A model generated the notes under the pieces. That model was not told the origin of the DNA. It did not search any database and worked only from the letters and a program-made list of their open reading frames with translations. Positions 6,744 through 50,818 of a DNA stretch of 64,000 bases are shown in pieces; the stretch's first letter is position 1, and every line of letters begins with the position of its first letter. The position numbers and the translations under genes were made by a program. The stretch lies in assembly GCF_003334405.1 (NCBI RefSeq), contig NZ_QOWM01000001.1. One strand, given 5' to 3'. This DNA comes from Escherichia coli. GTDB lineage: Bacteria; Pseudomonadota; Gammaproteobacteria; Enterobacterales; Enterobacteriaceae.

Positions 6744-6844
6744 CAGTTGAATAATCAACCGGAATAAATCTCCGGCAAATAACGACAAAAACAAAATTGG
6801 CCGTTTCGGTCAGGGCCAACTATTGCCTGAAAAAGGGTAACGAC

Positions 6845-16525: not shown

Positions 16526-16564
16526 CAGTGCTCTGGTAGCTGTAAAGCCAGGGGCGGTAGCGTT
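16526..16564 (+). promoter_or_regulatory. JUMPstart element with ops site (RfaH-dependent antitermination signal)
   Basis: CAGTGCTCTGGTAGCTGTAAAGCCAGGGGCGGTAGCGT; ops core GGCGGTAG at 16553-16560, about 50 nt upstream of the first O-antigen gene. Confidence 0.8.
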
Positions 16565-39824: not shown

Positions 39825-40649
39825 ATGAAAAAGGTCGCAATTGTCGGGTTAGGGTGGTTAGGCATGCCGCTGGCGATGTCACTTTCAGCGCGAGGCTGGC
39901 AAGTCACCGGGAGTAAAACCACACAAGATGGTGTCGAAGCGGCCCGAATGAGTGGCATTGATAGCTATCTGCTTCGCATGGAGCCTGAGTTAGTTTGCGA
40001 TTCTGACGATCTGGATGCCCTGATGGATGTCGATGCGCTGGTCATTACGCTTCCGGCACGTCGTAGCGGCCCCGGCGATGAGTTCTATTTACAAGCGGTA
40101 CAAGAGTTAGTGGATAGCGCGCTGGCCCATCGTATTCCCCGCATTATTTTTACCAGCTCAACATCTGTCTATGGCGACGCGCAAGGCACGGTGAAAGAAA
40201 CTACCCCGCGTAATCCGGTAACCAACAGTGGACGAGTATTAGAAGAACTCGAAGACTGGCTGCACAATTTACCCGGTACTTCGGTCGATATTCTGCGTCT
40301 TGCGGGGCTGGTCGGACCGGGACGTCATCCCGGACGCTTCTTTGCCGGAAAAACCGCGCCTGATGGTGAACATGGTGTTAATTTAGTCCATTTAGAAGAT
40401 GTTATTGGCGCTATCACTCTGTTGTTACAGGCACCTAAAGGCGGACACATCTATAATATATGTGCGCCAGCTCACCCTGCGCGTAATGTTTTCTATCCGC
40501 AGATGGCCCGTTTACTGGGGCTGGAGCCTCCGCAGTTCAGAAATAGTCTGGACAGCGGCAAAGGTAAGATTATTGATGGCAGTCGGATTTGTAATGAACT
40601 GGGATTTGAATACCAGTATCCCGATCCGCTGGTAATGCCGCTGGAGTAA
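39825..40649 (+). CDS. yeeZ: NAD(P)-binding Rossmann-fold protein YeeZ
   Basis: 274 aa; N-terminal VAIVGLGWLG motif; synteny. Confidence 0.85.
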   Translation: MKKVAIVGLGWLGMPLAMSLSARGWQVTGSKTTQDGVEAARMSGIDSYLLRMEPELVCDSDDLDALMDVDALVITLPARRSGPGDEFYLQAVQELVDSALAHRIPRIIFTSSTSVYGDAQGTVKETTPRNPVTNSGRVLEELEDWLHNLPGTSVDILRLAGLVGPGRHPGRFFAGKTAPDGEHGVNLVHLEDVIGAITLLLQAPKGGHIYNICAPAHPARNVFYPQMARLLGLEPPQFRNSLDSGKGKIIDGSRICNELGFEYQYPDPLVMPLE

Positions 40650-40673
40650 ACGATCACGCCAGCAGGACGCCGC

Positions 40674-41624
40674 ATGCACTGCAAGGGGGCGTGTATGAAA
40701 CCACTGCTGGATGTGTTGATGATCCTCGATGCCTTAGAAAAAGAAGGCAGTTTTGCGGCGGCGTCGGCCAAACTCTATAAGACGCCGTCCGCTCTGAGTT
40801 ACACCGTTCACAAGCTGGAAAGCGACCTTAATATTCAATTGCTTGATCGTAGCGGTCACCGCGCTAAATTCACCCGTACCGGAAAAATGTTATTAGAGAA
40901 AGGGCGGGAAGTTCTGCATACCGTGCGAGAACTGGAAAAGCAGGCGATCAAACTGCATGAAGGCTGGGAAAACGAGCTGGTGATTGGCGTGGACGACACG
41001 TTTCCTTTTTCTCTGCTTGCGCCACTGATTGAAGCTTTTTATCAACATCATAGCGTGACGCGCCTGAAGTTTATCAATGGCGTACTCGGTGGTTCCTGGG
41101 ATGCCCTGACTCAGGGGCGAGCGGATATTATTGTTGGCGCGATGCATGAGCCACCATCTTCCAGTGAGTTTGGTTTTTCACGGTTGGGCGATCTGGAACA
41201 AGTCTTTGCGGTCGCGCCTCATCATCCGTTAGCCCTGGAAGAAGAGCCGTTAAATCGTCGTATTATTAAGCGATATCGGGCGATTGTGGTGGGGGATACT
41301 GCGCAGGCAGGCGCTTCTACGGCCTCACAACTTCTCGACGAACAAGAAGCCATTACCGTTTTCGATTTTAAAACCAAGCTGGAGCTGCAAATTAGCGGCC
41401 TCGGCTGCGGCTATTTACCCCGTTATCTGGCGCAACGTTTTCTCGATAGTGGCGCGTTAATCGAGAAGAAAGTGGTCGCCCAAACTCTCTTTGAACCCGT
41501 CTGGATTGGCTGGAATGAACAGACCGCAGGACTTGCCAGTGGCTGGTGGCGGGATGAAATTTTAGCAAATAGTGCGATCGCCGGTGTTTATGCAAAATCT
41601 GATGACGGAAAATCAGCCATTTAA
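40674..41624 (+). CDS. yeeY: LysR-family transcriptional regulator YeeY
   Basis: N-terminal HTH (GSFAAASAKLYKTPSALSYTV) and LysR substrate domain; true start may be the internal ATG at 40695. Confidence 0.85.
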   Translation: MHCKGACMKPLLDVLMILDALEKEGSFAAASAKLYKTPSALSYTVHKLESDLNIQLLDRSGHRAKFTRTGKMLLEKGREVLHTVRELEKQAIKLHEGWENELVIGVDDTFPFSLLAPLIEAFYQHHSVTRLKFINGVLGGSWDALTQGRADIIVGAMHEPPSSSEFGFSRLGDLEQVFAVAPHHPLALEEEPLNRRIIKRYRAIVVGDTAQAGASTASQLLDEQEAITVFDFKTKLELQISGLGCGYLPRYLAQRFLDSGALIEKKVVAQTLFEPVWIGWNEQTAGLASGWWRDEILANSAIAGVYAKSDDGKSAI

Positions 41625-41707
41625 AGAAAAATTATTATGACAAGCCTCTCATTCTCTTGTCATTTCCCCCCCATTTAGGCACAATGCGCCGCTGTCAAAA
41701 AATGACT

Positions 41708-41743
41708 AAAAACCGACGTTTCATCAGCGTCGGTTATTTTTTG
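41708..41743 (+). terminator. Rho-independent terminator downstream of yeeY
   Basis: ACCGACG...CGTCGGT stem followed by T-run. Confidence 0.65.
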
Positions 41744-41890
41744 CTTCAAACCAATCATTCATACCAAGAGGCCGGGCTTCGTACCGGATAGATATTTACT
41801 AAAAATCGACAGTTGTTGTCGCTGAGGAATCCAAAAAAATGGGGCAATTTTTTGCTTACGCGACGGTTATCACTGTAAAGGAGAATGACC

Positions 41891-43249
41891 ATGTCGCATA
41901 ACGTTACTCCAAACACCTCTCGCGTGGAATTGCGTAAAACGCTTACGTTAGTTCCGGTTGTAATGATGGGTCTTGCCTATATGCAGCCGATGACGCTGTT
42001 TGATACTTTTGGTATCGTTTCAGGCCTCACGGATGGTCATGTGCCGACAGCCTATGCGTTCGCATTGATTGCGATCCTGTTTACGGCTCTGAGCTACGGG
42101 AAGCTGGTTCGCCGCTATCCTTCTGCTGGCTCTGCATACACTTACGCCCAGAAATCCATTAGCCCGACTGTCGGCTTTATGGTGGGTTGGTCTTCTCTGC
42201 TCGACTATCTGTTCGCGCCGATGATCAACATTCTGCTGGCGAAAATCTATTTTGAAGCTCTGGTGCCTTCCATCCCATCGTGGATGTTTGTGGTGGCGCT
42301 GGTGGCCTTTATGACCGCCTTTAACCTGCGTAGTCTGAAATCCGTAGCGAACTTCAACACTGTAATCGTCGTGTTGCAGGTAGTGCTGATCGCGGTGATT
42401 CTGGGCATGGTTGTTTATGGCGTATTTGAAGGTGAAGGCGCTGGTACGCTGGCGAGCACTCGTCCGTTCTGGTCTGGCGATGCGCATGTTATCCCGATGA
42501 TTACCGGGGCGACAATCCTGTGCTTCTCCTTTACCGGCTTTGACGGCATCAGCAACCTGTCGGAAGAAACCAAAGATGCAGAGCGCGTGATCCCGCGTGC
42601 GATTTTCCTGACCGCGCTGATTGGCGGCATGATCTTCATCTTTGCAACTTACTTCCTGCAGCTGTACTTCCCGGATATCTCTCGCTTTAAAGATCCGGAT
42701 GCGTCACAGCCTGAAATCATGCTGTACGTTGCGGGTAAAGCGTTCCAGGTTGGCGCGCTGATCTTCTCCACCATTACCGTACTGGCGTCCGGTATGGCGG
42801 CGCATGCAGGCGTAGCGCGTCTGATGTACGTAATGGGTCGTGACGGCGTATTCCCGAAAAGCTTCTTCGGTTATGTACACCCGAAATGGCGTACTCCGGC
42901 GATGAACATCATCCTGGTTGGCGCGATTGCCCTGTTGGCAATCAACTTCGACCTGGTAATGGCTACAGCGCTGATTAACTTTGGTGCGTTGGTGGCGTTC
43001 ACCTTCGTTAACCTGTCGGTCATCTCGCAGTTCTGGATCCGTGAGAAGCGTAATAAGACGCTGAAAGATCACTTCCAGTATCTGTTCCTGCCGATGTGTG
43101 GTGCGCTGACCGTTGGTGCGCTGTGGGTTAACCTGGAAGAAAGCTCAATGGTTCTGGGTCTGATCTGGGCGGCTATCGGTCTGATTTACCTGGCTTGCGT
43201 CACCAAGAGTTTCCGTAACCCGGTTCCGCAGTACGAAGACGTAGCGTAA
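41891..43249 (+). CDS. plaP: Putrescine importer (APC family amino acid/polyamine permease)
   Basis: Start taken at [14 protein letters not shown]; 12-TM APC transporter. Confidence 0.9.
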
Positions 43250-43266
43250 TCATCTTTTGTAATAAT

Positions 43267-43305
43267 AAACCGGAGCCAAATGAATATTTGGCTCCGGTTT
43301 TTTTA
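43267..43305 (+). terminator. Rho-independent terminator downstream of plaP
   Basis: CCGGAGCCAAA...TTTGGCTCCGG stem followed by T7 run. Confidence 0.8.
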
Positions 43306-43427
43306 TTCTTTTTTATCGACATCCTCATTAATAACCATTTGTTCTAATTTAGAGAATTTGGTTATTGGTCTGCATTCCACCAGTCATGAATAATTTCCCT
43401 ATTAACATTCATCTGGTTAATTAATTT

Positions 43428-44486
43428 ATGTTTTCAATGATATTAAGCGGGCTAATTTGTGGTGCTCTGCTGGGATTTGTCATGCAGCGTGGGCGTTTTT
43501 GCCTGACAGGTGGTTTTCGCGATATGTATCTCGCGAAAAATAATCGCATGTTTTACGCCTTGCTGATTGCAATTTCGGTACAAAGTGTGGGGGTTTTTGC
43601 GTTAATTCAGGCGGGCCTACTGACTTACGAAGCCGGGGCGTTCCCGTGGCTTGGTACTGTTATAGGTGGGTATATCTTTGGGCTGGGAATTGTTCTGGCG
43701 GGTGGATGTGCCACCGGGACCTGGTATCGCGCGGGTGAGGGATTGATCGGCAGTTGGATCGCGCTTTTCACTTATATGGTGATGAGTGCGGTGATGCGTT
43801 CTCCACATGCCAGTGGTTTAAATCAAACCTTGCAGCACTACAGTACTGAACATAACTCTATTGCTGAGACTTTTAATTTGTCTGTGTGGCCGTTGGTTGC
43901 CGTTTTGCTGGTGATAACGCTCTGGGTGGTGATGAAAGAGTTGAAGAAGCCAAAACTCAAAGTCGCGACCTTACCGCCGCGCCGAACCGGGATCGCTCAT
44001 ATTCTGTTTGAAAAACGCTGGCATCCCTTTGTCACTGCTGTACTCATCGGTTTGATTGCGCTTTTAGCCTGGCCCCTGAGTGAAGCAACCGGACGCATGT
44101 TTGGGTTAGGAATCACTTCCCCAACGGCCAATATTCTGCAATTTCTGGTCGCGGGTGACGTGAAATACATTAACTGGGGCGTTTTCCTGGTGTTAGGGAT
44201 CTTCGTGGGGTCATTTATTGCAGCCAAAGCGAGCCGTGAGTTCCGCGTTCGCGCAGCTGATGCACAAACAACATTACGTAGCGGGTTAGGTGGTGTACTG
44301 ATGGGCTTCGGTGCCAGTATTGCAGGTGGTTGCTCTATCGGTAATGGACTGGTTATGACTGCAATGATGACCTGGCAGGGCTGGATTGGCCTTGTATTTA
44401 TGATTCTCGGAGTCTGGACTGCGTCCTGGCTTGTGTATGTTCGACCGCAGCGTAAGGCGCGACTGGCAACTGCTGCGGCAAATTAA
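43428..44486 (+). CDS. yeeE: YeeE/YedE-family thiosulfate transporter
   Basis: 352 aa membrane protein with two conserved Cys-containing repeats (GRFCLTGG, GGCSIGNG). Confidence 0.85.
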   Translation: MFSMILSGLICGALLGFVMQRGRFCLTGGFRDMYLAKNNRMFYALLIAISVQSVGVFALIQAGLLTYEAGAFPWLGTVIGGYIFGLGIVLAGGCATGTWYRAGEGLIGSWIALFTYMVMSAVMRSPHASGLNQTLQHYSTEHNSIAETFNLSVWPLVAVLLVITLWVVMKELKKPKLKVATLPPRRTGIAHILFEKRWHPFVTAVLIGLIALLAWPLSEATGRMFGLGITSPTANILQFLVAGDVKYINWGVFLVLGIFVGSFIAAKASREFRVRAADAQTTLRSGLGGVLMGFGASIAGGCSIGNGLVMTAMMTWQGWIGLVFMILGVWTASWLVYVRPQRKARLATAAAN

Positions 44487-44499
44487 GTAAGGTGTAAAG

Positions 44500-44727
44500 A
44501 TGGCGATTAAAAAGCTGGATGTGGTGACGCAGGTCTGTCCGTTTCCACTCATAGAAGCAAAAGCAGCACTGGCAGAAATGGCCAGCGGCGATGAGTTGGT
44601 AATTGAGTTTGATTGCACCCAGGCAACTGAAGCAATCCCACAGTGGGCGGCAGAAGAAGGACATGCCATCACCGATTATCAGCAGATTGGCGATGCAGCG
44701 TGGAGCATCACCGTTCAAAAAGCCTGA
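44500..44727 (+). CDS. yeeD: TusA-like sulfurtransferase YeeD
   Basis: 75 aa; CPFP motif (TusA-type active Cys); immediately downstream of yeeE. Confidence 0.85.
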   Translation: MAIKKLDVVTQVCPFPLIEAKAALAEMASGDELVIEFDCTQATEAIPQWAAEEGHAITDYQQIGDAAWSITVQKA

Positions 44728-44769
44728 CTCAACATTGTCCTCCGCCGTACCAGCGGCGGAGGCTTCAAA

Positions 44770-46197
44770 TTAGACGATCTCTTCCGCGTACTGCCAAAGC
44801 GCTTTTAACAGCGCCACTTTCTCTTTGTCATCGGCATATTGTTGTGCCAGCATCTGCAATTCATCTGCATAACCCTGTAAAAACTCTGGCGTGAAGACCT
44901 GGCGGCGGTGCTCCAGCCAGCGTTGCTGCTCGGCATAATCCAGCGTCCCCGGGAAGTTGCGCGCCCGATAATTGAACAACAGCTTTTCAATCCGTTTATC
45001 GACAAAAGTGATATCCAGTGCCGGTAAATTACGCGGCTCGGTTTCCAGCACAATTTTCATTGCTGCACGATCGGCGTCACTGAAAAAGCCGTTATAAAGC
45101 TGTGCATCCACGTTATCTGAAGGCGTAAACGGTTCGGCTTCCGCGAATATCGCCACCACTTTTTCGCGCACTTGCGGATTTTCACGCAGAATTTTCAGGT
45201 TATCGAGGCAATGCTGACGATTAATTCCCAGTCGGTCGGCATCTTCCGGGCGTAGCGTATTCGCCTGGGCCAGCACCGGACATTTATTGATATGCACCAG
45301 CTTAACCGGAACGGCGGCGTTATCGCCAAGATCGGTTTTTGCGGTATATAAACGCTCGCGCAATGTGTCGCTATCCAGTTCCAGTAATGGCGAAATGTCT
45401 CCTGCCAAATCCACCATAATTACAGCATTGCGATTTTCAGGATGCCACGCCAGCGGTGCCACCCAGCTGGTATTGCCGCGCCATGCCCCAAACATTCCGG
45501 AAACGTGAACCAGGGGTTTCATCTGCGGAACATCAATCAACGCCATCAGTTTGTGTTTATTACGATGGGTAAAGAGATAATCAAACAGGCGTGGCTGACG
45601 CGTTTTTACCAGTTTCGCCATCGCAATAGTGGCGTACACATCAGCCATCGCATCGTGGGCGTTGCTATGTTCAATACCATTCGCTTTGGTTAAATGCTCA
45701 AGGCGAAAGCTCGGTAGACCGTCATCATTTTCAGGCCAGTTTATTCCTTCCGGGCGCAGGGCATAACAGGCACGCATAACATCCAACAAATCCCAGCGCG
45801 AGTTATCATGCTGCCAGCTCCAGGCGTAAGGATCGTAGAAATTACGATAAAAAACGTTGCGTGTGACTTCGTCGTCGAAACGCACATTGTTGTAGCCCAG
45901 AATACAGGTCTTCGGTACGGTAAAAAGCGAGTGAATACGGGCGGCAAACGCGGCTTCGTTTTCTCCTTTCGCCCGTGCTTCCTGCGGGGTAATACCGGTA
46001 ATTAATACTGCTCCAGGCTGGGGTAAATAGTCATCCGCGGGCTTGCAGTAAAAGACTTCGGGTTCGCCGATGACATTGAATTCGCTATCGGTGCGAATGG
46101 CTGCGAACTGTGCAGGGCGATCTAACGCGGGGTGCGTGCCAAAGGTTTCGTAATCGTGAAACAAAAAGGTAGATTGTTGCTTACCGTCATTCATCAT
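44770..46197 (-). CDS. sbcB: Exodeoxyribonuclease I
   Basis: Start taken at MMNDGKQQSTFLFHDYETFGT (DEDD exonuclease motif); listed ORF extends 16 codons upstream. Confidence 0.95.
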   Translation of the reverse strand: MMNDGKQQSTFLFHDYETFGTHPALDRPAQFAAIRTDSEFNVIGEPEVFYCKPADDYLPQPGAVLITGITPQEARAKGENEAAFAARIHSLFTVPKTCILGYNNVRFDDEVTRNVFYRNFYDPYAWSWQHDNSRWDLLDVMRACYALRPEGINWPENDDGLPSFRLEHLTKANGIEHSNAHDAMADVYATIAMAKLVKTRQPRLFDYLFTHRNKHKLMALIDVPQMKPLVHVSGMFGAWRGNTSWVAPLAWHPENRNAVIMVDLAGDISPLLELDSDTLRERLYTAKTDLGDNAAVPVKLVHINKCPVLAQANTLRPEDADRLGINRQHCLDNLKILRENPQVREKVVAIFAEAEPFTPSDNVDAQLYNGFFSDADRAAMKIVLETEPRNLPALDITFVDKRIEKLLFNYRARNFPGTLDYAEQQRWLEHRRQVFTPEFLQGYADELQMLAQQYADDKEKVALLKALWQYAEEIV

Positions 46198-46399
46198 TAG
46201 GTTAAATCCGTTATTTCTGCTGTCTGCCAGAGTATCAAATATCACCGTGCTAATCAGCTTTAGCGCAACAATTTGACAGCGAGTGGCAACAGATCATGTC
46301 AGATAAAAATGAGAGAGTAGTCACATTTTCTTGCACTTTATTCCAGCCAGTTCATAAGTATTTCCGTAAAAAGAACAGCTATTTGAAACTCCTGAGGGT

Positions 46400-47572
46400 T
46401 TGCTGTTGAAACGCCGTCTTATTATTGCTGCTTCTTTGTTCGTTTTTAACTTATCGTCTGGTTTTGCGGCGGAAAACATTCCTTTTTCACCTCAGCCTCC
46501 ACAGATTCATGCCGGGTCCTGGGTACTGATGGATTACACCACCGGTCAGATCCTCACCGCGGGTAATGAGCATCAACAGCGCAATCCCGCCAGCCTGACA
46601 AAGCTGATGACGGGTTATGTCGTGGATCGCGCTATCGATAGTCATCGCATTACGCCAGACGATATTGTCACCGTGGGGCGCGATGCGTGGGCGAAAGATA
46701 ATCCGGTGTTTGTCGGTTCTTCACTGATGTTTTTGAAAGAGGGCGATCGCGTATCGGTACGTGATTTAAGCCGTGGTTTAATTGTGGATTCCGGAAATGA
46801 CGCTTGTGTTGCTCTGGCTGACTATATTGCCGGTGGGCAACGGCAGTTTGTTGAAATGATGAACAACTATGCCGAGAAGCTGCATCTCAAGGATACGCAT
46901 TTTGAAACAGTGCATGGTCTGGATGCACCTGGCCAGCATAGCTCGGCTTATGATTTAGCTGTGCTTTCTCGCGCTATCATCCACGGCGAGCCCGAGTTTT
47001 ATCATATGTACAGTGAGAAAAGTCTCACCTGGAACGGTATCACCCAGCAAAACCGTAACGGGTTGTTGTGGGATAAAACCATGAATGTTGACGGCCTGAA
47101 AACGGGTCATACTTCTGGTGCCGGGTTTAATCTCATTGCTTCGGCTGTAGATGGGCAGCGTCGTCTCATTGCAGTGGTAATGGGGGCTGACAGTGCAAAA
47201 GGTCGTGAGGAAGAGGCAAGAAAATTACTGCGTTGGGGGCAACAAAACTTTACTACGGTGCAAATTTTGCACCGTGGGAAAAAGGTCGGAACGGAACGCA
47301 TCTGGTATGGCGATAAAGAAAATATCGACCTGGGAACGGAACAAGAGTTCTGGATGGTGCTACCGAAAGCCGAAATTCCACATATCAAAGCCAAATATAC
47401 CCTTGATGGTAAAGAGCTCACCGCGCCAATTAGCGCCCATCAGCGGGTAGGGGAAATTGAACTTTACGACCGTGATAAACAGGTGGCGCACTGGCCGCTG
47501 GTTACCCTGGAATCTGTCGGGGAAGGCAGCATGTTTTCTCGCCTGAGTGATTATTTCCACCATAAGGCCTGA
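46400..47572 (+). CDS. dacD: D-alanyl-D-alanine carboxypeptidase (PBP6b)
   Basis: 390 aa; signal peptide, SLTK active-site motif (ASLTKLMT); apparent TTG start. Confidence 0.9.
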   Translation: MLLKRRLIIAASLFVFNLSSGFAAENIPFSPQPPQIHAGSWVLMDYTTGQILTAGNEHQQRNPASLTKLMTGYVVDRAIDSHRITPDDIVTVGRDAWAKDNPVFVGSSLMFLKEGDRVSVRDLSRGLIVDSGNDACVALADYIAGGQRQFVEMMNNYAEKLHLKDTHFETVHGLDAPGQHSSAYDLAVLSRAIIHGEPEFYHMYSEKSLTWNGITQQNRNGLLWDKTMNVDGLKTGHTSGAGFNLIASAVDGQRRLIAVVMGADSAKGREEEARKLLRWGQQNFTTVQILHRGKKVGTERIWYGDKENIDLGTEQEFWMVLPKAEIPHIKAKYTLDGKELTAPISAHQRVGEIELYDRDKQVAHWPLVTLESVGEGSMFSRLSDYFHHKA

Positions 47573-47656
47573 CCTTTCTTTTGCAGCAGACTGGCAGGAG
47601 TGCGAGTCTGCTCGCATAATCAACACTCATTCCTTGTGGTTTTAATTTTGCAACTA

Positions 47657-47676
47657 TACTGTATATAAAAACAGCA
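47657..47676 (+). promoter_or_regulatory. LexA (SOS) box upstream of sbmC
   Basis: TACTGTATATAAAAACAGCA matches CTGT-N8-ACAG consensus, 15 nt upstream of sbmC ATG. Confidence 0.85.
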
Positions 47677-47690
47677 TCAATGGAGGCGTC

Positions 47691-48164
47691 ATGAACTACG
47701 AGATTAAGCAGGAAGAGAAACGTACCGTTGCAGGTTTCCATCTCGTTGGCCCGTGGGAACAGACGGTAAAGAAAGGTTTTGAGCAGTTGATGATGTGGGT
47801 AGATAGCAAAAATATTGTGCCGAAGGAGTGGGTTGCTGTCTATTACGACAATCCGGATGAAACACCCGCCGAAAAATTACGCTGCGACACCGTCGTGACG
47901 GTACCGAATAACTTTACGCTCCCCGAAAACAGTGAGGGCGTCATTCTGACAGAAATTTCAGGTGGTCAATATGCGGTGGCGGTGGCTCGTGTAGTCGGTG
48001 ATGATTTTGCTAAACCCTGGTATCAGTTCTTTAATAGCCTCTTGCAGGACAGTGCTTATGAAATGTTACCAAAGCCCTGCTTCGAGGTTTACTTGAACAA
48101 TGGCGCGGAAGATGGGTACTGGGATATCGAAATGTATGTTGCGGTGCAGCCAAAACATCACTAA
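47691..48164 (+). CDS. sbmC: DNA gyrase inhibitor SbmC (GyrI)
   Basis: 157 aa; synteny and LexA box. Confidence 0.9.
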
Positions 48165-48361
48165 TTCATCTCAGGGCGGTGTGTTAACGCGAAGACCACT
48201 CTTTTTTTGAAAGCGAAAAGAGTAAGATGCGCCTTTCAAATTTTTCGCTCCTGCCGGGAAATTACACTGTTCCCGGTATGTCCGTCGGATAACTCAGAGG
48301 CGCGCCTTCTGGCCGACAGATGTGTTATGAGCGCTTTTCATCTTCATTACGGAGTTTCTGA

Positions 48362-49420
48362 GTGCGTGCCGATAAGTCATTAAGCCCGTTTGAAATCCGG
48401 GTATACCGCCATTACCGCATTGTGCATGGTACTCGGGTCGCGCTGGCATTCCTGCTCACTTTTCTCATTATCCGCCTGTTTACTATCCCGGAAAGCACCT
48501 GGCCGCTGGTCACCATGGTGGTGATTATGGGGCCAATCTCGTTCTGGGGGAACGTTGTCCCTCGTGCCTTCGAACGTATTGGCGGTACGGTGTTGGGGTC
48601 GATTTTAGGTCTTATCGCTCTGCAACTGGAGTTAATTTCGTTACCGCTGATGTTAGTCTGGTGCGCGGCGGCGATGTTTCTTTGCGGTTGGCTGGCGCTG
48701 GGCAAGAAACCGTATCAAGGATTATTGATTGGGGTGACGCTGGCAATTGTTGTGGGTTCCCCGACAGGTGAAATTGATACGGCGTTATGGCGAAGCGGCG
48801 ATGTGATCCTCGGCTCTTTACTGGCAATGTTGTTTACCGGTATCTGGCCACAACGGGCGTTCATCCACTGGCGCATTCAACTGGCGAAAAGTCTGACCGA
48901 GTATAATCGGGTCTATCAATCTGCATTCTCACCGAACTTACTCGAACGCCCACGTCTGGAAAGCCATCTACAAAAACTGCTGACCGATGCCGTGAAAATG
49001 CGTGGGCTGATTGCGCCCGCCAGCAAAGAAACCCGTATTCCCAAATCGATATATGAAGGTATCCAGACCATTAACCGCAATCTGGTTTGTATGCTGGAGT
49101 TGCAAATCAATGCGTACTGGGCCACGCGCCCCAGCCATTTCGTGTTATTGAACGCGCAAAAACTTCGTGATACCCAGCACATGATGCAGCAAATACTGCT
49201 GAGCCTTGTTCATGCGCTGTACGAAGGTAATCCGCAGCCGGTTTTTGCCAATACGGAAAAATTGAACGATGCTGTGGAAGAGCTGCGTCAGTTGCTCGAT
49301 AACCACCATGACCTGAAGGTTGTGGAAACACCAATCTATGGTTATGTGTGGCTGAACATGGAAACGGCACATCAGCTTGAGTTGCTATCGAATCTGATTT
49401 GCCGGGCCTTGCGCAAATAA
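48362..49420 (+). CDS. yeeA: Inner membrane protein YeeA (FUSC-like)
   Basis: 352 aa with N-terminal TM helices; probable GTG start; synteny. Confidence 0.8.
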   Translation: MRADKSLSPFEIRVYRHYRIVHGTRVALAFLLTFLIIRLFTIPESTWPLVTMVVIMGPISFWGNVVPRAFERIGGTVLGSILGLIALQLELISLPLMLVWCAAAMFLCGWLALGKKPYQGLLIGVTLAIVVGSPTGEIDTALWRSGDVILGSLLAMLFTGIWPQRAFIHWRIQLAKSLTEYNRVYQSAFSPNLLERPRLESHLQKLLTDAVKMRGLIAPASKETRIPKSIYEGIQTINRNLVCMLELQINAYWATRPSHFVLLNAQKLRDTQHMMQQILLSLVHALYEGNPQPVFANTEKLNDAVEELRQLLDNHHDLKVVETPIYGYVWLNMETAHQLELLSNLICRALRK

Positions 49421-49591
49421 TTCCTGAACTTCAGAATCATCTTGCTGCTGCTTCGATTCAGCAAGGATAAAGGGTATGATAGTGAAAAGGGATAAAAGCA
49501 TTGTCATCTGCGGCAGCTATGAGTAATGTTGGCCCTAACGAATAGCGGTTGCTTAAACGAATCCGACTCTCACATTATCAGGGGTATAAAA

Positions 49592-49921
49592 ATGGAAACT
49601 ACCAAGCCTTCATTCCAGGACGTACTGGAATTTGTTCGTCTGTTCCGTCGTAAGAACAAACTGCAACGTGAAATTCAGGACGTTGAGAAAAAGATCCGTG
49701 ACAACCAGAAGCGCGTCCTGTTGCTGGACAACCTGAGCGATTACATCAAGCCAGGGATGAGCGTTGAAGCAATCCAGGGCATCATCGCCAGCATGAAAGG
49801 TGACTATGAAGATCGCGTTGACGATTACATCATCAAAAATGCCGAGCTCTCCAAAGAACGCCGCGATATCTCCAAAAAGCTGAAAGCTATGGGCGAAATG
49901 AAAAACGGCGAAGCGAAGTAA
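49592..49921 (+). CDS. yeeX: UPF0265 protein YeeX
   Basis: 109 aa from [27 protein letters not shown] with SD upstream; listed ORF has a spurious upstream extension. Confidence 0.9.
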
Positions 49922-50021
49922 TTCCCGTTTTATTCAATGAGGGTTGCCCGGCAACCTTCATTGCTCATTGATTCTTATCTGTGTATCACCGTCATCATTC
50001 TCATCTGAGAACCAATCGAAA

Positions 50022-50260
50022 TTAACAACAGCCTTCTTCTGTATGCAGCAAGGCAAAAAGTTCTGTAACTCCATTGTTATTAACTGCACTGGTTACTAAC
50101 ACGTTGTGCGCTCCAGCTTCCCGTAACCAACTTTTCACCAAAGATATTTGTTCCATGCTGGCTAAATCTGCTTTGGTTACTACTCCAATGACCGGGTGAT
50201 TCATGGCCCGGTAGGGCGTTTTTACCTCTAATTCCTGCTTCAGCGCTGAGATTCCTGCTT
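50022..50260 (-). pseudogene. C-terminal fragment of a EutP/PduV-family small GTPase (yoeF-like remnant)
   Basis: PVIGVVTKADLAS...LFALL resembles the PduV/EutP C-terminus; no N-terminal P-loop region present; truncated at the IS66 junction. Confidence 0.4.
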
Positions 50261-50261
50261 G

Positions 50262-50434
50262 TTGCCGGAAAAGCAGGCACCTGCCGTCTGAACGGTATCG
50301 ATCCGGAAGCGTATCTGCGCCATATTCTGAGCATACTGCCGGAATGGCCCTCCAACCGTGTTGACGAACTCCTGCCATGGAACGTAGTTCTCACCAATAA
50401 ATAAGCGTCAATACGGTGCTCCGTTGACGCTTAC
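50262..50434 (+). mobile_element. IS66-family element remnant: last ~45 codons of transposase plus terminal repeat
   Basis: Translation ...GTCRLNGIDPEAYLRHILSILPEWPSNRVDELLPWNVVLTNK*; about 85-90 percent nucleotide match to the inverted copy at 57659-57805; ends ...CGCTTAC. Confidence 0.65.
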
Positions 50435-50818
50435 TTTAATCCGTTTTCTGAGCTTAGATTTTTCTGTTCCTACCCAGACCGTGGATTTGGAATTCATTTT
50501 TTGTCAGGTCAATGCTAATCGTTAAAACGGCCATAACGCACCTCCACTGGAAGGTTTATCAGTAATATCCTACCGTTGCTTCATGGTCGGGGCGTCCATT
50601 CCATTATTATCGGTTTTCCTTTCTGTTTATAAATGAAAACGCCAGCTGTATTCAGGCTGGCGTCAGGGGAAATGAAGCCTGTTGAGTGAGATTCACCGGT
50701 TCTGGTGCAGAAGCTGCAGATGGCGCAGGGTAAGGACATCTTCTCTTGCCTGCTTAATACAGGACAACAGTGCTGTTTCTGTGGTTAATGGCACTATACC
50801 CTGCATCACTGCATTGTC

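Follow-up and report, generated by a model that had tools for sequence, protein, structure and literature searches.

The DNA analysed here, called the window, is a stretch of 64,000 nucleotides from Escherichia coli (NCBI RefSeq assembly GCF_003334405.1, contig NZ_QOWM01000001.1). A preliminary description, made from the letters alone, had read two genes in it, yeeE and yeeD, as a thiosulfate uptake pair. The locus raises the question of whether that reading stands, how the pair may work and be controlled, and how constant it is within the species. The open reading frames across 40674-47572 are yeeY (LysR-type), plaP, yeeE, yeeD, sbcB, and dacD. The first four lie on the plus strand, while sbcB lies on the minus strand, convergent with yeeD and with its stop codon at 44770-44772, and dacD is located beyond it. 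The gene yeeE (tsuA; 43428..44486, plus strand) codes for a 352-aa inner-membrane thiosulfate transporter of the YeeE/YedE family (Pfam Sulf_transp), and yeeD (tsuB; 44500..44727, plus strand) codes for a 75-aa cytoplasmic TusA-like sulfurtransferase with a CPFP motif at C13 and a second cysteine, C39; these coordinates are exactly those first assigned. The gap between the genes is 13 nt, and the Shine-Dalgarno sequence of yeeD read from it, AAGGTG (44489..44494, plus strand), stands 5 nt 5' of the ATG.

The pair is almost certainly the E. coli tsuA (yeeE)-tsuB (yeeD) operon, a two-gene thiosulfate uptake system independent of the CysPUWA ABC transporter. It is already known, and its function, structure, and mechanism have been published (Tanaka 2020; Ikei 2024). 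YeeE is residue-for-residue the K-12 TsuA/YeeE (WP_000492346.1), and YeeD is likewise the K-12 TsuB/YeeD (WP_000985273.1). Both proteins passed the curated NCBIfam cut-offs: YeeE scored 710.4 bits against 645 for TsuA (NF041049; residues 2-349 on profile positions 1-348 of 348), and YeeD scored 163.2 bits against 147.5 for TsuB (NF041048; residues 3-74 on positions 1-72 of 72). In addition, YeeE matched Pfam Sulf_transp (PF04143) over the whole model (E=3.2e-119; residues 21-331, positions 1-310 of 310). Among TusA-like PDB chains, YeeD matched 1JDQ (E=5.5e-10), 1JE3 (E=3.5e-7), and the YeeD part of 8K1R (E=4.4e-6), and also 8J4C. A Megablast search of 5426 complete E. coli genomes found a 1551-nt stretch of the locus at 99.9% identity, and in more than 4200 genomes RefSeq names the genes 'thiosulfate utilization transporter TsuA/YeeE' and 'thiosulfate utilization sulfurtransferase TsuB/YeeD'. 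The identity to the K-12 proteins and the two family scores thus support the initial reading as a thiosulfate uptake pair. Growth on thiosulfate as the sole sulfur source without CysPUWA has been published for the identical K-12 pair (PMC7449682; PMC11073785).

Every residue known from experiment to be essential is in place. The three YeeE cysteines C25, C94, and C302 are present and align to C22, C91, and C293 of S. thermophila YeeE (6LEO; end-to-end alignment, E=2.5e-44), and R31, R101, and E104 align to its R28, R98, and E101. In E. coli YeeE, C25, C94, and C302 are essential, and not even Ser can take their place (Tanaka et al., PMC7449682). YeeD carries C13 in VCPFPL, the motif behind its earlier labelling as a TusA-like CPFP protein, and C39 in FDCTQ. 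Both YeeD cysteines are needed in E. coli (Ikei et al., PMC11073785), and YeeE-mediated growth on thiosulfate requires YeeD (PMC11073785). None of these five cysteines was lost on alignment. The membrane protein had also been described as having paired Cys-containing repeats, which holds for C94 and C302, whose motifs align between the two halves of the protein, but not for the third essential cysteine, C25, which lies outside the repeat pair. The two motifs, LAGGCATG (C94) and IAGGCSIG (C302), align weakly by BLASTP (E=0.001), and a profile-profile comparison of the halves built from 93 homologues gave E=5.9e-5 over 40 columns. This internal repeat agrees with the pseudo-222 symmetry published for YeeE (PMC7449682). 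Similarly, the short proteins PmpB and PmpA match the N- and C-terminal YeeE halves, respectively, and have cysteines that correspond to C91 and C293.

The gene order and the cysteines are retained well outside E. coli. The homologue sample was obtained with a degenerate DNA pattern for GGCATGTWYRAGEG in GTDB representative genomes, which returned at least 120 loci; those among the matches listed come from Enterobacteriaceae, Pasteurellaceae, Helicobacter, many Bacillota, and some Actinomycetota, and none is named Escherichia or Salmonella. Among the matches listed, yeeD lies directly 3' of yeeE on the same strand at every one of the 98 loci with downstream DNA, the other 22 ending within 20 nt of yeeE, so the pair is indeed the conserved two-gene unit that it had been taken for. 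YeeE C25 is kept in 117 of 117 and C302 in 103 of 103 of the listed matches, whereas the invariance of C94, R101, and E104 is built into the search pattern and carries no weight. For YeeD, also among the matches listed, C13 is kept in 97 of 98 and P14, F15, and P16 in all 98. A second cysteine of the C39 type is lacking in the crystallised S. thermophila YeeD, and it is present in 97 of 97 of the listed homologues, including those of Bacillota and Helicobacter. A two-cysteine YeeD seems to be the rule in the clade with the E. coli-type YeeE motif.

The mechanism that has been proposed for the pair is a relay of cysteines. YeeE is an inner-membrane protein shaped like an hourglass and built of nine transmembrane helices. 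Thiosulfate would enter a periplasmic indentation near C302 and be passed across the membrane along three stacked cysteines, from C302 to C94 to C25. C13 of YeeD, in the CPFP motif, would then receive it, with YeeD docked on the cytoplasmic face of YeeE and serving as a 'fourth cysteine'. The modified YeeD would dissociate and decompose thiosulfate to sulfide and sulfite, which would feed cysteine synthesis; this fate of the sulfur after YeeD is likewise proposed or inferred. The experimental part of the literature consists of growth complementation, transport by S. thermophila YeeE in liposomes, a crystal complex of YeeE and YeeD, and the decomposition activity of YeeD.

Among the rival explanations, the one that survives best is that YeeE is a passive thiosulfate channel or uniporter and YeeD a cytoplasmic sink that pulls the flux, with no hand-over from cysteine to cysteine. 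Tanaka et al. themselves considered their data compatible with a channel (PMC7449682), and S. thermophila YeeE alone moves thiosulfate in liposomes, yet does not rescue growth without YeeD. Direct cysteine-to-cysteine transfer has been questioned by Dahl's group, as the YeeE cysteines are spaced about 7 A apart, beyond direct sulfur transfer. The S. thermophila YeeE C22A variant still complements (PMC7449682). However, a channel does not sit easily with the intolerance of C25, C94, and C302 in the E. coli protein even of Ser (PMC7449682). In the crystal complex, YeeD C17 lies beside YeeE C22, and thiosulfate weakens the binding; in some bacteria, YeeE and YeeD are fused in one polypeptide, which argues for a 1:1 working complex. 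The passive channel is the less likely of the two accounts, and the cysteine relay remains the proposed mechanism.

Upstream of the pair, a strong hairpin at 43267-43300 has a 15-pair stem with 7 GC pairs and a T-rich tail (dG -25.1 kcal/mol, z -6.8). The preliminary description had given the unit its own terminator upstream. A strong hairpin followed by a T-run is certainly there, but it begins 18 nt past the plaP stop codon and is therefore the terminator of plaP (43267..43310, plus strand, including the T-run), which insulates yeeED from plaP read-through. Its CCGGAG...CTCCGG stem and T-run are kept over ten enterobacterial loci among the matches listed, while the loops vary. The left arm of the stem carries C at 43276 and A at 43278 here, and T and G in K-12; the pairing is preserved by both alleles, as C-G or U.G and as A-U or G.U. 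On the other side of the pair, a GC-rich hairpin between yeeD and sbcB (44739..44762, no strand assigned), recognised by its folding energy, has a 10-pair stem with dG of about -21 kcal/mol and z of -3.5 on the plus strand and -2.1 on the minus strand. A clear U-tract is lacking on both strands, and a consensus scan did not call the hairpin as a terminator because the T-run is missing. The hairpin is a probable shared transcription stop for the convergent genes yeeD and sbcB.

The spacer between the plaP terminator and yeeE would hold the yeeED promoter. A sigma-70 consensus scan of 43150-44900 found no full promoter, and the promoter was therefore placed by conservation. When the plaP-yeeE spacers of ten loci from eight genera, drawn from the matches listed, are aligned, the islands ATAAC, TAG, TTTGGTTATTGG, and AATAAT stand out as invariant amid diverged DNA. 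AATAAT (43389..43394, plus strand) is invariant in all ten aligned spacers and is the candidate -10 box, and no good -35 was seen upstream of it. The lack of a sigma-70 consensus fits an activator-dependent promoter. The other three islands, which are invariant or almost so in the ten loci, all fall inside a 37-bp imperfect palindrome at 43330..43366 (no strand assigned), AATAACCATTTGTTCTAA-T-TTAGAGAATTTGGTTATT, whose 18-nt arms are 78% complementary and 1 nt apart. The pattern of its outer arms is unique in the window, where 0 matches are expected by chance. The palindrome ends about 22 nt before AATAAT and would span about -71 to -35 if AATAAT is the -10 box, and it is a candidate site for a LysR-type activator.

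CysB is a plausible activator at this candidate site, judging from the layout of the sequence. Footprinting by Hryniewicz and Kredich reportedly defined CysB activation sites as pairs of convergent half-sites, each of about 19 bp and separated by 1-2 bp, directly upstream of the -35 region. The arm length and spacing of the palindrome at 43330-43366 would suit such a layout. In published transcriptomes, yeeE and yeeD rise alongside genes of the cys regulon. The searchable literature linked yeeE to sulfur starvation or CysB by co-expression tables only, and it gave no CysB binding site and no transcription start for yeeED. YeeY, an uncharacterised LysR-type protein encoded two genes upstream of yeeE, is an alternative candidate regulator at the palindrome.

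The pair is not constant within E. coli. Searched at blastn sensitivity, yeeED DNA was found in just 4209 of 5426 complete E. coli genomes, although the plaP and sbcB flanks were present in 5425. The whole cassette is absent, as in CFT073, from the remaining 1217 (about 22%). In CFT073, 1520 bp of the window (43252-44771) give way to an unrelated 73-bp sequence containing two hairpins (positions 2353-2425 of the retrieved locus), and both genes are lost together with the candidate promoter, the plaP terminator, and the distal hairpin. Comparison of this 73-bp junction with the cassette of the window gave no homology beyond the flanking coding sequence, and neither deletion end-points nor direct repeats. 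The CCGGAG/CTCCGG terminator stem in the CFT073 junction resembles a Klebsiella-like plaP terminator (30 nt, E=0.003). The empty site is intact in 783 genomes and, by subtraction, split in about 430 more; rows with an IS200C transposase are seen, and the split sites are apparently due to IS200C. A search of the literature linking yeeE to phylogroups gave nothing relevant.

The plaP-yeeE-yeeD-sbcB synteny was found, among the matches listed, in Citrobacter, Kluyvera, Pseudocitrobacter, Superficieibacter, Siccibacter, Kosakonia, and an Enterobacter sp. Because it is kept in these seven other enterobacterial genera, presence would be the ancestral state, and the absence of the cassette in E. coli is most simply a derived deletion, as far as the gene order in Enterobacteriaceae outside Escherichia indicates. 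GC content does not set the cassette apart as foreign DNA: it is 0.50-0.52 in yeeE and yeeD, as in the flanking DNA, and falls to 0.41 in the intergenic promoter region only. Operons disrupted in other ways were also observed. IS5 lies within the locus of NZ_CP062883.1 and IS1A in tsuA of NZ_CP189493.1, and in strain HH45 (NZ_CP116411.1) an internal deletion has cut yeeE down to a 111-nt fragment, which is annotated as a pseudogene, and has shortened the TusA-family ORF to 58 aa. The losses and IS insertions fit a dispensable accessory function that is redundant with CysPUWA. In the record NZ_CP046416.1, of 'E. coli' strain LZYWN_4, plaP has only 89% DNA identity, and an ArsR-family gene and an EF-G paralogue stand between plaP and sbcB with no yeeED. 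Its protein accessions appear Klebsiella-like, and the record is probably mislabelled as E. coli. The plaP-sbcB interval is a variable slot, as this record shows.

Two further readings concern the surroundings of the genes: the palindrome may be the operator of a regulator other than CysB, for example YeeY, and the CFT073-type loss may have been adaptive, a change in sulfur acquisition that defines a lineage, as opposed to neutral decay. We regard these readings as improbable, and CysB as the plausible regulator. A non-CysB operator, if real, would mean thiosulfate-specific control of yeeED. The breakpoints of the polymorphism and the conserved palindrome could offer small testable leads on lineage differences in thiosulfate use.

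Several observations concern the DNA around the locus. Divergence from K-12 over 37250-50196 is uneven, with 44 mismatches in 37250-38749 (the hisD/hisG end), 29 in 47250-48749, and 0 in 43750-45249, a pattern suggestive of a mosaic made by recombination, with a yeeED-sbcB segment of K-12 type. About 9.2 kb at 50197-59413, between tmaR and cobU, has no counterpart at that place in the DH5alpha record, and the alignment jumps from 50196 to 59414; in K-12 MG1655 this is presumably the site of the CP4-44 prophage remnant. In the yeeY-plaP spacer, 41670-41744 (plus strand) matches the enterobacterial sRNA STnc240 in Rfam (68.2 bits against a gathering score of 55). This match ends shortly before the place of the 20-codon yoeI ORF, which in the RefSeq annotation overlaps the start of plaP. 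Further Rfam matches in the window are algC RNA (6791-6840, plus strand), JUMPstart (16526-16564, plus strand), the His operon leader (38808-38931, minus strand), and a tRNA (63034-63106, minus strand). JUMPstart and the His leader agree with the polysaccharide and his gene clusters that E. coli carries on this side of the pair.

Two other identities were weighed for the pair and rejected. The first is import of sulfane sulfur for sulfur oxidation or repressor signalling, as by SoxT1/SoxT2 and TusA in sulfur oxidisers. According to published SoxT work, these transporters belong to the same family and have the three cysteines and the substrate pocket in common with it. However, TsuA stands on a branch well separated from SoxT in the published tree, and at this locus the pair is flanked by plaP and sbcB and has neither sox nor hdr genes beside it, so that this identity is very improbable. 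Still less credible, to the point of being negligible, is a selenium-metabolism transporter and carrier like E. coli yedE-yedF, for the weak matches to YedE/FdhT (114 bits) and YedF (42.8 bits) and the match of YeeD to 1JE3, which is E. coli YedF, reflect shared ancestry, while the scores fall far under the curated cut-offs of the YedE models NF033796/TIGR04112 and the YedF models NF008242/TIGR03527 (114.2 vs 350, 51.7 vs 200, 42.8 vs 79, 28.7 vs 110), the TsuA and TsuB models are passed, and the identical K-12 proteins support growth on thiosulfate (PMC7449682; PMC11073785).

Several known systems resemble the thiosulfate uptake pair. E. coli YedE/YedF has the same two families, a YeeE/YedE membrane protein and a TusA-like CPxP protein, and the same two-gene layout, and the two pairs are paralogues. 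TusA, the sulfur carrier for tRNA 2-thiouridine and Moco, has the same small alpha/beta fold and CPxP active-site cysteine as YeeD. However, TusA is not replaceable by YeeD, the partner of YeeD is a membrane protein, and YeeD decomposes thiosulfate whereas TusA does not; no TusA model was among the NCBIfam matches at E<=0.001. The S. thermophila YeeE and its fusion with YeeD (6LEO; 8J4C, 8K1R) have in common with the E. coli pair the three pathway cysteines, the cytoplasmic-face residues R28, R98, and E101, and the CPxP cysteine of YeeD. They differ in that S. thermophila YeeD is without the second essential cysteine that E. coli has as C39 (PMC11073785), that K67 and E241 of S. thermophila YeeE are G70 and G251 in E. 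coli (PMC7449682), and that the loop at about 125-205 aligns poorly between 6LEO and E. coli YeeE. The closest counterpart is the pair of E. coli K-12, b2013 (TsuA/YeeE) and b2012 (TsuB/YeeD), with identical proteins and 0 differences in coding DNA from the DH5alpha record. There, too, the pair has yeeY, yoeI, and plaP upstream and sbcB and dacD downstream, and just two bases differ over 1551 nt, 43276 and 43278, both in the stem of the plaP terminator. The pair is a textbook-level annotated E. coli operon, with solved homologous structures and published genetics.
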